Below, one piece after another: positions 9,571 through 61,055 of a stretch of DNA of 64,000 bases. A program made the position numbers and the translations under genes. The stretch spans positions 4,712,001-4,776,000 of the forward strand of contig CAKKNE010000005.1 in the NCBI GenBank assembly GCA_918797485.1, written 5' to 3'. A model generated the notes under the pieces. That model had not been told where the DNA came from. It ran no database searches and worked only from the letters and a program-made list of their open reading frames with translations. The DNA is from Pelagomonas calceolata (taxonomy: Eukaryota). Position 1 is the first letter of the stretch; the number at the start of each line of letters is the position of its first letter.

Positions 9571-10619
9571 ATGGCCTCCATCCTCTGCTGCACTTCCGGC
9601 AACCAGACCGTCGAGGCCGTCGTCCAGCCCGCGTGGGACAACCACTTCGCTGCCTTCGGCGGCCAGGACGTTAGCAAGGTCCTGCTCGACTACTGCGAGG
9701 AGTCCAAGATCATCGTCTACAACTGGCACGACGACACCGAGACCGTGTACAACGGGATGGCTGGCGCCTGTGTGGAAATCAAAATTTTACGGCGCGTTCG
9801 TGCTGAATCGTCGCGTCGTCCTCCACGCCATCGACGCGACGCCTGCTCGATGGCGTGGCGATGCCGGTTCCTCGCCGCTCGACCGAGCCAGGACGGAGGC
9901 GTCATTGCCGAGAAATGACTTAGTGAAGAATTGTCGGGTGCACCTGACACACTGGGTTGATTTCCACACAGGCGGGCGCCAAGGAGTGCTTCACGGGCCT
10001 CTTCGCCGCGCTGCCCGATCTCTCGGGCCTCGCCGCGCCGGAGATCCACGTCGAGGAGGGCAACCCGAAGTCGGTCTTCCTCATCTGGCGCTGCCCGAGC
10101 TCGGGCTTCGTGCACTGCACGGACACCTTCCTCTTCAACGACGCCGGCAAGATCGTGCGCCAGACCGTCTGCATCCTCAACCCGGGCGCGCCCGCGGGCA
10201 AGGCGCCGCTCTGCACGGAGCCGCAGGGCGGCCCGGTCCAGGCGTCGTGGGACAACCACTTCGCCGCGTTCGGCGCCCAGGACGTCGACAAGGTCCTCAA
10301 GGACTACACCGAGAAGTCGGTGATCAAGGTCTATAACCAGGTGACGGACGAGTTGGTCGAGTTCAAGGGCCTGAAGGGAGTCAAGGAGTGCTTCACTGGC
10401 CTGTTCAAAGACCTCTCCGACCTGTCGGGGCTCGCCGCGCCCGCGATCCGCGTCGAGGAGGCCACCGAAGACAAGGCGGGCATGGTCTTCCTCGTGTGGC
10501 GCTGCCCGAGCTCGGGGTACAACCACGCGACCGACACGTTCCTCTTCGACGCCGCGGGCAAGATCGCGAAGCAGAATGTTGTCATCATGAAGCCGGCGGC
10601 CGAGGCGGGCGAGCAGTAA
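9571..10619 (+). CDS. tandem SnoaL/NTF2-like domain protein; exons 9571-9759 and 9972-10619 (278 aa)
   Basis: Two internal repeats (WDNHFAAFG.QDV.KVL.DY...FL.WRCPSSG...TDTFLF..AGKI); removing 9760-9971 restores colinearity (NGMAGAKECF vs KGLKGVKECF). Confidence 0.75.
9768..9971 (+). mobile_element. introner/MITE copy 1, full length (204 bp); GC-AG intron 9760-9971
   Basis: Perfect 13-bp TIR CTGTGTGGAAATC/GATTTCCACACAG; TSD gctggcgc/gcgggcgc; internal 12-bp inverted repeat 9823-9834/9847-9858. Confidence 0.92.
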
Positions 10620-14992: not shown

Positions 14993-16612
14993 TTAGGCGG
15001 AGGACTGAGGCAGCTCGTCGGGCCAGTCGTCCGTGTCGCCCGACGCGCGGAACGCCCGGATGTTCTCGACCCACTCCGTCTCGCCCTCCTTGATCCTCAG
15101 ATTCCCGACGAGGATGGAGTTGTTCTGGTGGTCCTTGGACGCGGCGACCTTCAGGCGCAACGTGCCGGAGACGCCTCTTGCTTTCAACTTGAAGTTGATG
15201 AACCCGTCCGTCGACGTCTTGCCCGACTTGGACTTGGGGACGAGCTTCGGCACGAGCGGTCTGTCGTCTTTTGTGGAATTAATGCCCTTCATAATCAAAC
15301 AACCGCCGGCCGCTTTACCGGAAGGCGCGTCCAGTACCAAAGCGCCGGTGGCGTTCCGGTAGTTCGCGGGGCCCTTAAAGCCCGGTTCGAGCTTTTCCTC
15401 GGGGTCCTCGGGTACCCCCGCGTTGTCTTTCACCCTCCTGGTATAGTACCTACCAGTAACGGCGACGAAGGCCTTGTCCGCCTCGACCTCGTCGGCCGTC
15501 TTTTCGGTCGTGTCGCGCTTCTTCACGGGTCGCAGGTTGGCCAACAACGCCTGTTGCTTCTGGGGGTCGTCAATCGTGATGTACTTCCTTGCTAGATCAT
15601 GGGCCAGGTCGGCCTTCTTGGCACCCAAATCCAAGATACCTTGTAGTGTAGTACCACTCTTGTACGTTTCATAAGAATCATAAGATTTCGTATTGGCCCG
15701 TTTCGGGTTCTCCTGGAGGCACGTGCACGACTCGCCCATGAAGGCTTCCAAACACGACTGCGGCAGCTCGAGCTTGGGCGCTTTTTCTTTTTTTTCCTTC
15801 TCGACCTTCGGCGACGGCGGCGGCGGCGGGTTCGACGGGCGGTAGACCGTGCCAACTTGTTCATTTGGCGTCGGCGGGCCGTTGTTGGGGGTTATACCCA
15901 AGGCTTTCGCCTTGCCCTGCCTAAATTCGTCGTCGTCGATGATGCCGTCGTCATGTAAGCGTTTGAGCTTGCGCAGGGCTTCCTCGTCGATGGGGTAGGG
16001 CCCGACGAGCGTCTCGGGGCCGATGTACGGTACTGGTGAAGATCTCTGCGCCGGTGCATCATCATCGGTCTTCTTCGCGCGCTTCTTACTCGGTTTCTTG
16101 GCCTTGATTTTGCGCTTGACGACGGGCGCGCGCTCCTTCCAATCATCTCTATCTTGCTGGGATAGGGCCTTCCACATCTTGCCTAATTCCGCAATGATCT
16201 TCTGGGACCGCTCGCGCGGCGCCAAACCCTCCATCGCATTTACTCTTGTGGTGACTTCGGGGCGGTGCTCGTTGCTGAAGTGGAGGTAGCCGCTCACCTG
16301 TGTGGAAATCAAAATTTTACGTTCGTGCTGAATCTTCGCGTCTACCTGCACGCCATCGACGCGACGCCTGCTCGATGGCGTGGCGATGCCGGTTCCTCAC
16401 CGCTCGACCGAGCCAGGACGGAGGCGTCATTGCCGAGAAATGACTTAGTGAAGAATTGTCGGGACGCACTGGTTGATTTCCACACAGCCCGACACCTTGG
16501 CCATCTTGTAGCCCTCCTCGACCTCGTCGCCGTTCTCGTCCTGCTCGTCGTCGTCATTCAAGGCGTCGTCCTCAATGGCGCCGACGTCCATGGCGTCGTC
16601 GCGGTCGGCCAT
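14993..16612 (-). CDS. HMG-box protein; exons 16612-16496 and 16297-14993 (473 aa)
   Basis: Acidic N-terminus spliced to K|VSGYLHFSNEHRPEV...IIAELGKMWKALSQQDRDDWKERA HMG box; SHOCT-like LRKLKRLHDDGIIDDDEF. Confidence 0.8.
16298..16487 (+). mobile_element. introner/MITE copy 2 (190 bp), opposite orientation relative to host gene compared with copy 1; GT-AG intron 16495-16298 on minus strand
   Basis: Perfect TIRs; near-identical to copy 1; gene-strand TSD gtgtcggg/gtgagcgg. Confidence 0.92.
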
Positions 16613-24849: not shown

Positions 24850-26016
24850 CTAGTTCAGGAACGGGTCCGCCAACAGCATCCGAAAGAACTTCCCTCCTTC
24901 CCCGAACTCCTGCTTCGCCGCGCGAAGCAATCCGAGGCATTCGTCCCTCCGGTCGTCGTCGCGCAGGGCCAGCAAACAAACGCCCACCGTCGCCCGGCAG
25001 TGAGCTCTTTCCCGTTCGGGCACTGCCTTCATCTCGATCTGTGGAAATCAACCAGTGCGTCGGGTGCACCCGAAAATTCTTCACTAGTCTAGTCATTTCT
25101 CGGCGACGACGTGGCCGCGCTGGCTCCGTCGAGCGGTGAGGAACCGACACCGCCACGCTATCGAGCAGGCGTCGCGTCGATGGCGTGGAGGTCGACGCGG
25201 CGATTCAGGACGAACGCGCGCCGTAAATTTGATTTCCACACAGATCTCCACGTCTTGCTCGGCCACCAAGAGCGTGCGTTCCACGACACCTAGGAGTCGG
25301 GCTGGGTCCTCTCCTTTCTCATAAATCATCCGCAGATTCCTCAGCATCCGCGCTGCCAGCGAGAGACCCTCGAGAGGGGAAACATCGGTCAGCTGCGACC
25401 GCGCGTTCTCAAGCACGTTTCCGCCCCCGAACGCGTCCACCACAAAGGTCTCGGAAGTGTCGTCCGGAGCTACTAGAACATGCATCGGCGTGTTGAGCAG
25501 AGAGAACGGTGTGCCCGCGGCGGCACAAGCTCTCGCAAAAACCAAGCTCATCGTGATCGGGATGCCTCGGCGTCTCCGAATGACTTCGTCGATGAGCGAG
25601 TTGGCTGGATTGTAGTAGTCGTCGACGTCTCCCGCGAAGAATTCAATTTTTGTATTGTTCTCCTCGGGCAGGCCCTGATCGCCGAACATCGCAGCACCGA
25701 CAGCGCGCGCCACGACCGCCGCACCGCTGCGGTCCCCGAGCATCAGCTCAAGGCGTGCGCGCGTCGTCGCTCGGGCAGCCAGCTCGTCCAGCGCCTCGGT
25801 GACTCGTTTTTCACAAGCGGAGAGCGGCTCGTCTGGCTTCTCTTCGGCCGCGATTGCTATAGCGATTGCGAGGTCGTCAGGTTTGGGACGTGCTATCTCT
25901 GCGGCAAAAGCATTGCGCGCCTCGCAACCGCTACGGAGGCGTGCGTCCTGCAGCGGCGTCAGCGCTGCTGCTGCTGCTGTGCATGTCAGCAGCCAAAGTG
26001 TTGCACGGTGCAGCAT
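24850..26016 (-). CDS. SirB1/Transglut_core2-like protein; exons 26016-25252 and 25038-24850
   Basis: DYYNPANSLIDEVIRRRRGIPITMSLV; P.H; VVDAFGGG; RMLRNLR..Y; splice gives AEQD|IEMK. Confidence 0.8.
25039..25243 (-). mobile_element. introner/MITE copy 3 (205 bp); GT-AG intron 25251-25039 on minus strand
   Basis: Reverse-complement homologue of copy 1; one TIR lacks 2 nt but keeps CAG; gene-strand TSD gtggagat/atcgagat. Confidence 0.9.
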
Positions 26017-57708: not shown

Positions 57709-58254
57709 ATGCCGCGCCTCGCGGTGGCGCTGGCGCTCTGCGCCGCAGCGTCTGCCTTCCAGGCGCCTGTGTCGCAGCCCGCCCGCAGCAGCCTCGCGCG
57801 GCACGCCGAGGACCCGACGAAGGTCTGGTACGCCGACCTCGCGAACGGCGTGCAGAACCTCCTGCAGAACTCGCCGCTCAACGAGGGAAAAAAGGCCGTC
57901 GTGAAGATGATGGCTGGTGGTTACGATGTCGCCGCGACGAACGAGAAACTGGACGAGCTCATCGCGAACCCGGTCGTTATGCTGTCGTTCACGAAATGAC
58001 CCTTCTGCATCAAGGCGAAGCAGCTGCTCGACGCCAAGGGCGCCAAGTACGTCGCCTACGAGCTCGACCAGGCCGACGACGGGCCAGCCATCCGCGCGGA
58101 GATGTGCGACCGTATTGATCGTACCTCAGTCCCGGCCATCTGGATCGACGGCGTCTACGCCGGCGGCTGCAACGACGGCGGGCTGGGGGGCGTCGTGAAG
58201 CTCGACCAGCAGGGCCGGCTCGACGAGCTGCTCAAGGCGGCCGGCGCCGTCTGA
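57709..58254 (+). CDS. selenocysteine-containing glutaredoxin (UPFC), plastid-targeted; TGA 57997-57999 = Sec97
   Basis: ASA-FQAP presequence; FTK-TGA-PFCIKAK; frame continues through RTSVPAIWIDG..AGGCND to stop 58252-58254. Confidence 0.9.
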
Positions 58255-58264
58255 AGGAATCCCG

Positions 58265-58334
58265 CGCGGCGGCGATGACGCGCGCCCGCTCTCTTTTCTC
58301 CGAGCGGGCGCGCCGACGATATTATGTAGCCGCG
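58265..58334 (+). promoter_or_regulatory. SECIS-like element of glutaredoxin
   Basis: ATGAc + 12-bp perfect stem gcgcgcccgctc/gagcgggcgcgc + cGA; lower helix cgcggc/gccgcg; apical loop lacks AA. Confidence 0.75.
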
Positions 58335-58562: not shown

Positions 58563-59730
58563 ATGCAGCCCCAGCAGCCGCCGGGCTTCTCTCCAGAACT
58601 TGGTGGAGAGGGAGAGTCCAATGCTGTCGTCATGGGAACAGTCGTCGAGGGAACAGTCGTGCAGCCGCCCGCCCAATCCGTAACAATCGTGCAGCCGGCC
58701 GCCCAACCCGTGGTCCTCGCCCCGCAAGATGTACGTGCGCGCGGCCTCGCCGTCGTGCAGCCGCAGCCGGTGTACGGGCAGCCCCAGCCCCAGCCGCAGC
58801 CCGTCGTCGTGCCCCAGCAGCCCGGGACGTACGCGCAGCCGCCGTACGGGCAGCCCCAGGGCCAGCCGCAGCCCGTCGTCGTGCCCCAGCAACCCGGGAC
58901 GTACGCGCAGCCGCCGTACGGGCAGCCCCAGGGCCAGCCGCAGCAACCCGGGACGTACTACGCGCAGCCGCCGTACGGGCAGCCCCAGGGCCAGCCCCAG
59001 CAGCCCGGGACGTACTACGCGCAGCCGCCGCCCGTGGCGTCCAAGGTGATGCCGATGCCCATGAACGGCCAGATGATGATGCCGCAGATGATGATGCCGC
59101 AGGTGGTACGGGCCCCCGGCCAGTGGAACGGCGGCCAGCCGTGCGGGTGTTGCGACCCGCCGGGCGGCTGCCAGCTCTGCTGCGCCACGTGGTGGTGCCC
59201 GTGCGCGCCGGTAGCGCAGCTCCACGACCGGGTCGTGAGGCCGGGGAGTCACGGGGAGGTCTTCGCGGTCCTCTGCATTGCGCCGGCCCGCGCGGAAATC
59301 ATCTTAAACGGATGAACGCCGACACACCGGTTGCTTTGCACGCAGGCGACGGTTTTCAAGACGGTCGTGAGCTTGCTTTTGACGGCGGCTGGGGTGAACA
59401 TCGACGGTATGCTGCAGCGTGGAATCGTCTTCGCGTCGAGGGCGTGGGGGGCTGACGCGGTCGATCGTCCGCACAGGCCTGCTGAACATGCTACTCGCTT
59501 TCCTCTATTTGCTTTACATGAACCAAATAAGAGAGGCCATCGTCAAGCGGGACGGGATCGCCGACCGCGGGCTTATCTGCTGTGGCGACCCTTGCTGCGA
59601 CAACTACTGGTGTTGGCCCTGTCTGACTTGCTTCTTCATCCGGCACGAGCTCAACAGGAGCGGCGAGACCTACGACGACTGTTGCGGGCCCAGCTGGTCC
59701 CGCGGCGGCGGGCGGGCGCACGTCGTCTGA
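58563..59730 (+). CDS. PLAC8-family Cys-rich membrane protein with P/Q/Y-rich repeats; exons 58563-59279, 59346-59406, 59477-59730
   Basis: W.GG.CGCC.......C..WWCPC...AQL; IR..I..R.GI...CC..YWC.PC; two short introns restore frame. Confidence 0.75.
59288..59345 (+). mobile_element. highly decayed introner relic; GC-AG intron 59280-59345
   Basis: ccgcgcggaaatc vs TIR ctgtgtggaaatc; ends gacacaccggttgctttgcacgcag vs gacacactgggttgatttccacacag; TSD gcgccggc/gcgacggt. Confidence 0.7.
59415..59476 (-). mobile_element. highly decayed introner relic; GT-AG intron 59407-59476
   Basis: cagcgtggaatc...cgcgtcgagggcgtgg...gatcgtccgcacag; TSD gtatgctg/gcctgctg. Confidence 0.65.
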
Positions 59731-59788
59731 ATGAATCCCGCGTCGGCGCGCCGGGCACTTGTCACGAACCCGCCGCCGCCCCCAATGT

Positions 59789-59842
59789 GAATCCCCATTG
59801 AATCCCCACAACTCCGAATCCCCATTGAATCCCCACAACTCC
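59789..59842. repeat. perfect 27-bp tandem duplication
   Basis: gaatccccattgaatccccacaactcc x2 (gaatcccca x4). Confidence 0.85.
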
Positions 59843-59896
59843 GTGGTCTGGATGAATAAACACTGTTAATTTGGTCGGGTAGGACCGGGGCGCTCG

Positions 59897-59988
59897 CGCG
59901 CGCGCGACAACCGGCGGCGGCAGGGTCGGGCCGCCCGCGAAAGGTTCCGCGGACGGCCGTCACGGCGCCGCGGCCGGGTCGCGCGCGC
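59897..59988 (-). promoter_or_regulatory. SECIS-like element of peroxiredoxin
   Basis: Minus strand: GTGAc ggccgtccgcg gAAccttt cgcgggcggcc cGA, flanked by long lower helix (gcgcgcgcgac/gtcgcgcgcgc, ccggc/gccgg). Confidence 0.8.
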
Positions 59989-60000
59989 ACAATACGCCAT

Positions 60001-60456
60001 CTAGAGCTCCGCGAGGAGCGCGGCGGGCCCCTCTCGCGCGTCGAACGGGTCGATGCACTTGACAACGGTGCCGTCGGCGCCGACGACGACCGTCACGCGC
60101 GCGGACTTGTCGCAGGGGTCCGAGCCGTCCTTCGCCGGCTTGCAGACGCCGAACGCCTTCGTCATGGACTTGTCGACGTCGGAGAGCAACGGAAACGCGA
60201 AGTCGAACTTCTCGTGGAAGGCCTTGTTCGCGTCGACGGCGTCGCAGCTCACGCCGTAGAGGTCGTAGCCCTTGGCTTTAAATTGGTCGCAGAGCGCCGT
60301 GAACGCCTGCCCCTCCGCGGTTCACCCACCCGTGTCCGCCTTAGGGTAGAACCACAAACAGTAGGCCGAGCCCGCGAGCGAGTCCGACGAGACCGCGGCG
60401 CCCGTGTGCGCCGTCACAGCGAACTTGGGCACCTGGGCTCCGGCCTTCAAGGACAT
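60001..60456 (-). CDS. selenocysteine-containing peroxiredoxin (PrxQ/BCP family); TGA 60324-60322 = Sec45 at the peroxidatic position
   Basis: MSLKAGAQVPKF...WFYPKADTGG-TGA-TAEGQAF...GVSCD...FPLLSD...R.T.VVG.DG.V, one frame across the TGA. Confidence 0.9.
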
Positions 60457-60600
60457 GGCTCGGGCGCCGGCGCACAACGAGATTGTTGCCACACGCAGCA
60501 TTCAGCCGACGTGTCCTGTAGGCGCTCGCGACTACTAATTGCAGCCGCGTTGCCCTCTCGCGCTCCACTGAGAGCGAGACTCTGTTGTGAGACGCCAGCT

Positions 60601-60623
60601 CTAGTGTCTTTACAGGCCGCTAG
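60601..60623 (-). promoter_or_regulatory. recurrent promoter motif (variant)
   Basis: CTAGTGTCTTTACaggcCGCTAG between Prx and PCNA. Confidence 0.6.
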
Positions 60624-61055
60624 GTGACTGATTTGTCCTTCGAGCACTCGCGGTTGGCCACCTGTCTCAGCGGCAAGGCAGAAGAGGCAATTTTTTCATG
60701 ATTCTCGCTAGATAAGAGCACTAGCTCTCCCATTTTTGAAAATAGCAGCGCCCATTCACAGCCTTATAACTCCGTCGCTGTGCGCTTCCTGAGTCCACCG
60801 AGTCACTATGAGCTCACCACAACATATATGAGGGCGCGCGGCAACGAAAATGCTGCGCGCGGTGACCGCGGGCGCGATTTTTGGCCGAGGCGCCCCCTGG
60901 AACACGCGCTGCAGCGACGCGGCGCAGGGCCGCGCCGCGCGCCGCCTCGCGCCACGCTCTCGCTGCCGCGCCGCCAGCGCGCCACCCCACACACGCAAAA
61001 CGCCGCCGCCGCGGACGCGCCGATCACGTTCGAACGCGCGCAGGCGAAAAGCACC

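Follow-up and report, generated by a model that had tools for sequence, protein, structure and literature searches.

A BCP/PrxQ peroxiredoxin gene of Pelagomonas calceolata with an in-frame UGA that is very likely read as selenocysteine

We analyzed a 64,000-nucleotide stretch of contig CAKKNE010000005.1 from Pelagomonas calceolata (hereafter the window, in which all coordinates are given) and found on its minus strand a peroxiredoxin gene of the BCP/PrxQ family whose catalytic codon is TGA. This is, with high probability, a real selenoprotein gene. Selenocysteine (Sec) is very likely inserted at its in-frame UGA by means of a hairpin in the 3' untranslated region (UTR), and it is from these features that we infer selenium incorporation. 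The type of enzyme is already known; the P. calceolata gene is a member that had previously been mis-annotated.

The reading frame and its transcript

The coding frame runs from ATG 60456 to TAG 60001 on the minus strand and spans 151 amino acids, TGA included. The sole in-frame TGA is codon 45 (60324-60322) and lies within the stretch FYPKADTGG-U-TAEG. An earlier note on this DNA, made from the letters alone, had described a frame that continues across the TGA and an open reading frame (ORF) track limited to the C-terminal 83 residues. Both descriptions are accurate, as the standard-code ORF list contains just the piece at 60001-60252. Third-position GC content (GC3) of the frame is 0.89 upstream of the TGA and 0.94 downstream. 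An additional in-frame ATG at 60501, inside the transcript, places 15 more residues N-terminal to the 151-residue frame. The features of the locus are collected in Table 1.

Table 1. Features of the peroxiredoxin locus (window coordinates)
Feature	Position	Strand	Evidence
Unspliced transcript span	59883..60564	-	682-nt contig of run X6 and poly(A) reads X21/X24
BCP/PrxQ peroxiredoxin coding sequence, 151 aa, TAG stop	60001..60456	-	profile, sequence and fold searches
In-frame TGA, inferred selenocysteine 45	60322..60324	-	reads, relatives, frame
Active-site motif PKADTGGU (Pro38, Thr42, Sec45)	60322..60345	-	aligns to PKDNTPGC of solved BCPs
Arg120	60097..60099	-	invariant in 91-row alignment
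Cys105 and Cys115, clade-specific pair on beta-hairpin	60112..60144	-	10/10 clade rows; model strands 105-106 and 117-118
SECIS-like 3'-UTR hairpin, core to core 59963-59925, AA at 59946-59945	59889..59998	-	fold, strict scan, relatives
Upstream weak-context AUG and 15-residue leader	60457..60501	-	leader conservation; start of P0208
GC-AG intron site of some wild alleles (absent in window)	60326..60327	-	L001, L002, L003, L007
105 nt modeled as intron, actually exonic	60313..60417	-	P0208 without V14-E48; depth 28-54, no joint

The 682-nucleotide contig from run X6, which we guess to be an RNA run, covers 59883-60564 with no differences and no gaps relative to the window. Stranded poly(A) reads from runs X21 and X24 span about 59990-60570 in minus-strand sense. 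Their first mates lie on the plus strand here and on the minus strand over the first exon of the neighboring PCNA gene, which identifies the peroxiredoxin RNA as a minus-strand transcript. Both poly(A) runs derive from a single sample; we examined about 6% of the one and 12% of the other, which gave 317 and 349 reads on 59600-60900. The earlier note had made its claim depend on reads that support the TGA and on a conserved downstream frame. The reads bear out the first point, with a depth of 28 and 35 in the TGA bin and with no joint, no indel and no alternative letter over the TGA at the 2% level among the 317 + 349 reads. Raw depth drops to 0-1 over the GC-rich hairpin (59908-59995), so the inclusion of the hairpin in the mRNA rests on contigs, namely the X6 contig and poly(A) metatranscriptome contigs spanning the corresponding region in a relative. 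Against the Sec reading, a message that stops early but has no intron further downstream could be stable as well.

The surroundings of the gene are eukaryotic and include PCNA, whose first exon is spliced, TMEM230 and an FAD-dependent monooxygenase. The short first exon of PCNA lies at 60740-60780 (+); past 60780, reads resume in the coding exon, so the 356-residue PCNA ORF overstates the protein. On the other side, a convergent plus-strand transcript ends near 59860, abutting the 3' end of the peroxiredoxin gene; two near-identical head-to-tail copies of ~27 nucleotides occupy its 3' end (about 59788-59842).

Family, active site and the cysteine pair

Profile, sequence and fold searches agree that the protein belongs to BCP/PrxQ and that the TGA occupies the peroxidatic site, as had been proposed in the earlier note. 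It matches the Pfam family AhpC-TSA (E 2e-26), and in NCBIfam it scores best against the BCP family PRK09437 (E 2e-22), although its 79.7 bits fall short of the equivalog cut-off of 140. The best relatives in the PDB are BCP/PrxQ proteins, and the TGA aligns to their peroxidatic cysteine. An AlphaFold2 model built from a 91-row alignment has a mean pLDDT of 97.4, and its top Foldseek matches are all BCP/PrxQ (TM 0.82-0.91, with 0.90 for the first).

BCP/PrxQ proteins are defined by a PxxxTxx(C/U) motif together with a conserved arginine. P38, T42, U45 and R120 provide this set in the P. calceolata protein. Across the 91-row alignment P38, T42, G44 and position 45 are almost invariant, and we take Arg120 to be the catalytic arginine of peroxiredoxins. 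The size of the protein, about 150 residues without a C-terminal extension, is also that of the family, with BCP nearest by both profile and fold.

Peroxiredoxins use their active residue to attack the peroxide; its regeneration then falls to a resolving cysteine in helix 2 or 3 or, in enzymes of the one-Cys kind, to an external thiol. The P. calceolata protein has no resolving cysteine in helix 2, where position +5 is Gln50 (the earlier note had likewise found no second cysteine there), or in helix 3, where the residue is His81. Because it lacks this hallmark of 2-Cys PrxQ, we group it with the BCPs that have one active residue. We propose that the selenolate of Sec45, positioned by Pro38, Thr42 and Arg120, would attack H2O2 or organic hydroperoxides. 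Since the usual resolving positions are taken by other residues, we picture a one-Sec enzyme in which the oxidized selenium would be re-reduced by an outside thiol, from either glutathione/glutaredoxin or thioredoxin.

Two other cysteines bear on this mechanism. Cys105 and Cys115 are present in all ten rows of the clade, while Cys33, Cys56, Cys71 and Cys134 are variable among relatives. One of these rows is P0067 (KAJ1455343.1), a paralogue from Pelagophyceae sp. CCMP2097 with a signal peptide, which lacks the peroxidatic residue and the catalytic arginine and is likely a non-catalytic BCP-like protein. An alternative within the Sec reading is that Cys115 (or Cys105) serves as an atypically placed resolving cysteine, forming with Sec45 a selenenyl-sulfide that thioredoxin would reduce. 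Such a role would fit the invariance of the pair within the clade, the location of Cys115 on the hairpin five residues before Arg120, and the frequency with which bacterial Sec relatives have a cysteine at the Cys105 position (+60; 12 of the 118 examined). However, P0067 keeps both cysteines without a peroxidatic residue, as expected of a structural disulfide, and we therefore consider a resolving role quite unlikely. A structural Cys105-Cys115 disulfide is the likely arrangement.

The upstream start codon may direct a fraction of the protein to another compartment. The -3 position is a pyrimidine at the first AUG in all eight sequences and a G at the second AUG in all eight; among the other genes of the window, 13/16 have a purine there. 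The leader of 13-15 residues, composed of Met-Arg, a hydrophobic core and Ala-Arg-Ala followed by Met-Ser, is shared by 13 sequence variants that extend to L008, the eukaryote-like locus of lowest identity. It is likely a signal peptide, with a mitochondrial presequence as another possibility. Leaky scanning past the weak first AUG would produce a major cytosolic form of 151 residues and a minor leader-bearing form of 166 residues. The latter would enter the secretory or plastid-envelope route, where Cys105 and Cys115 would make their structural disulfide.

Conservation, the 3'-UTR hairpin and the reading of the UGA

To survey relatives we scanned metagenomes with patterns that excluded the catalytic codon, which returned 13 loci, 10 of them covering the site. 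The codon is TGA in 10/10 and TGY in none. Eight of the ten are eukaryote-like (identity down to 73%, in L008; L004 and L005 are near-duplicates), and the remaining two, bacterial in appearance, are identical to each other and share a contig. Between L004 and the window, the 44 codons upstream of the TGA have 15 synonymous and 5 non-synonymous changes, and the 106 codons downstream have 15 and 9. Both sides are thus conserved with mostly synonymous changes, in line with the second point on which the earlier note's claim depended, and this pattern of substitution indicates purifying selection on the frame beyond the TGA. The gene has a mark of eukaryotic selenoproteins: an in-frame UGA that aligns to the catalytic cysteine of homologues and is conserved across species.

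The eukaryotic sequences form one firm clade, with support of 99 in a 259-row tree and 100/99 in a hand-picked 72-row tree. It has no firm sister; its neighbors in both trees are Cys forms resembling those of dinoflagellates and a bacterial group in which Sec and Cys are mixed. We considered horizontal transfer from Sec-using bacteria, which these two trees do not demonstrate. We also scanned GTDB with a pattern that demanded TGA and obtained at least 120 stretches, a design that yields no Sec/Cys ratio; all 120 of the matches listed are BCP genes in which TGA occupies this position. Among the 118 of these loci that we examined, some of them incomplete, 32 have a cysteine at +5 and 45 have no downstream cysteine. 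Sec-type BCP genes were also seen on contigs titled as Nitrosopumilus, Patescibacteria and Klebsiella MAGs (L097, L081 and L079). These are unexpected hosts, and the contigs are probably mis-binned.

Downstream of the coding sequence, 359 nt 3' of the UGA, lies a hairpin (59998-59889) with a folding energy of -89.3 kcal/mol (z -6.40), which was equaled in 0/200 shuffles. It is built from G-UGAC at 59963, an upper stem with 11/11 pairs, the loop G-AA-CCUUU, CGAC ending at 59925 and a long GC lower helix, and it has a G·A/A·G core. The basic elements of a eukaryotic SECIS are present: a UGA/GA core, a helix II of 11-12 bp and a helix I. The earlier note's SECIS-like hairpin stands as to its 11-bp upper stem, apical AA and long GC lower helix, but the AA is not conserved in distant relatives: the window and five close relatives have it, and L004/L005 and L008 have a single A. 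Its GTGA/GA core is present, the 3' side reading CGAC, in all elements here, rather than the KGAW of the consensus. The published SECIS core is UGAN/KGAW with apical adenines, and certain lineages are described in the same source as having SECIS features of their own (PMC3753652).

We asked how unusual this hairpin is. A strict scan that demanded 11/11 pairs and a lower helix of -10 kcal/mol or below found two elements in the window, each behind a redox gene with an in-frame TGA, and one in total in 20 shuffled windows. A loose pattern was uninformative, with 10 occurrences in the window against 0-12 per shuffle. Rfam gave no SECIS-model match to the hairpin at E<=10, and none of the three chance matches of that scan was a SECIS. 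The hairpin is kept in relatives, that of L008 being weak by energy (z -1.5; 16/200 shuffles equally good). In a covariation count over seven distinct UTR rows, 85.8% was paired, nine pairs had changed on both sides and 0/500 shuffles scored as high; the count carries little weight, because six rows are close kin, the structure was the one predicted for the window itself and the alignment of the distant row is poor.

The earlier note spoke of a second selenoprotein, which implies a first, and that one is real as well, 2 kb from the peroxiredoxin. This glutaredoxin gene (57709-58254, +) has a plastid-type leader, a TGA at its catalytic position (57997-57999; UPFC) and a SECIS-like hairpin of its own at 58275-58317 (z -3.1), whose loop has no adenine. 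The non-consensus hairpins of the two neighboring genes offer a natural test of whether a SECIS needs apical adenines.

If the TGA were a true premature stop, the locus would be a pseudogene or would encode two fragments, one of 44 residues and a re-initiated one of 83. Databases do contain almost only halves of the protein, and read-through is not demonstrated by mRNA alone. However, the near-identical database proteins end at the TGA or start after it, which is what gene callers make of a UGA, and the catalytic codon is TGA in every covering locus, never TAA, TAG or a frameshift. The stretch from the TGA to the GTG chosen by the ORF caller (codons 46-68) is conserved as well, with 0-2 non-synonymous changes of 23 in six relatives, and so is the hairpin. 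We regard a premature stop as very improbable. Much the same holds for reading of the UGA as Cys or Trp, whether through an altered genetic code or through leaky decoding. The hairpin's deviation from the SECIS consensus would suit such decoding, but TGA is not globally reassigned, as it terminates 7/24 long coding-like ORFs in the window, including the neighboring glutaredoxin. Additionally, both in-frame TGAs fall on catalytic Cys positions, with the same core hairpin downstream of each, leaving little probability for an amino acid other than Sec. In the Sec reading that we favor, the hairpin would act as a SECIS whose kink-turn G·A/A·G core is bound by SBP2, with Sec-tRNA delivered via eEFSec.

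The public gene model, wild alleles and known systems

The public P. calceolata protein CAH0378102.1 (P0208; 131 aa) uses the upstream start at ATG 60501 and is identical to the window frame from there on, except that it lacks V14-E48. The missing 35 codons include the active site and correspond to 105 nt (60417-60313) with GT...AG ends. The public model therefore splices out the TGA together with the entire active site, but RNA reads lend this intron no support, read depth being 28-54 throughout. Although the GT...AG ends, a frame that stays open and a catalytically dead paralogue in another pelagophyte (P0067) could be cited for real splicing to a 131-residue protein without a peroxidatic residue, there were no joints among the 317 and 349 reads of the sampled conditions, metatranscriptome contigs too read through the segment, and its removal would cost the structural model two beta-strands and the beginning of helix 2, making this extremely improbable.

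Some wild alleles do carry an insert near the TGA. Two bases 5' of it, four loci have inserts with GC...AG ends: 78 nt in L001 (868-945), 81 nt in L002 (584-664), 129 nt in L003 (617-745) and 203 nt in L007 (778-980). In 3/4 marine RNA runs, contigs lack precisely the 78-nt insert of L001 and have the junction letters of the intron-bearing allele; the remaining run has the window-type junction. It is possible that the skipped form comes from an intron-less allele with the same letters. Among the matches listed, the TGA is unchanged in the marine RNA contigs. Next to its Cys115 codon L007 carries another insert, which has terminal inverted repeats. Its relatives in the window are introner-like elements, likewise bounded by terminal inverted repeats, at 9768-9971, 16298-16487 and 25040-25243, and introner-like introns have been reported for P. 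calceolata (PMC9481584). The wild-allele intron near the UGA is transposon-like.

A bolder view would combine these observations. Pelagophytes would have a lineage-specific SECIS (RUGAC/CGAC, with apical adenines dispensable) that standard models miss, so that a large selenoproteome of an abundant open-ocean alga would have escaped annotation; the peroxiredoxin would have dual starts, export or plastid-envelope targeting and a new Cys105/Cys115 recycling; and an intron of transposon origin would be tolerated in wild alleles just two bases ahead of the Sec codon. We consider this whole doubtful.

Several known systems resemble the P. calceolata protein. Algal AhpC_a has a TGGUT motif, with a Sec form in the pelagophyte Aureococcus anophagefferens, Emiliania huxleyi and Symbiodinium minutum (Jiang et al. 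2020, PMC7539508). The two share an AhpC-TSA domain and the exact TGGUT motif, a likeness drawn from domain and motif; in the available portion of that paper, Pelagomonas is not among the hosts named, and the leader, the Cys105/Cys115 pair and the form of the SECIS are not discussed. The prokaryotic selenoprotein family Prx corresponds to COG1225 Bcp, has the motif TxxU and counts 43 genes in the Sargasso Sea set (PMC1088965, PMC9312934). It shares the BCP fold, the peroxidatic-site Sec and TxxU, and is found in at least 120 GTDB genomes. The bacterial hairpin lies in the coding region, whereas that of the algal gene is in the 3' UTR, and the algal gene falls in its separate clade with its own Cys pair (best identity to the bacterial proteins ~44% among the matches listed).

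The Cys-containing BCP/PrxQ proteins of Burkholderia (5ENU) and Xanthomonas (PrxQ, 3GKM/5IIZ) share the fold (TM 0.88-0.90) and the active-site Pro, Thr and Arg. In contrast to these, the algal protein has Sec in place of Cys and no resolving cysteine in helix 2 or at the position of Xanthomonas Cys84, which is His81. The UxxC AhpC selenoproteins of choanoflagellates, sponges and Emiliania (PMC3753652), and AhpC_b, likewise have a thioredoxin fold, an AhpC-TSA domain and a eukaryotic SECIS. The algal protein stands outside that family because its motif is TxxU, without a cysteine at +3.

We found no selenoprotein report for P. calceolata, and "selen" is absent from the main text of PMC9481584 on this species; work on the Aureococcus selenoproteome (Gobler 2011, 2013) and the supplement of PMC7539508 may describe an orthologue and its SECIS. 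Our finding corrects a public gene model that lacks the active site of an enzyme. Selenoproteins of P. calceolata have been hidden from annotation, two of them within a 3-kb part of this window, and their presence bears on the selenium demand and the oxidative-stress defense of a widespread picoalga.
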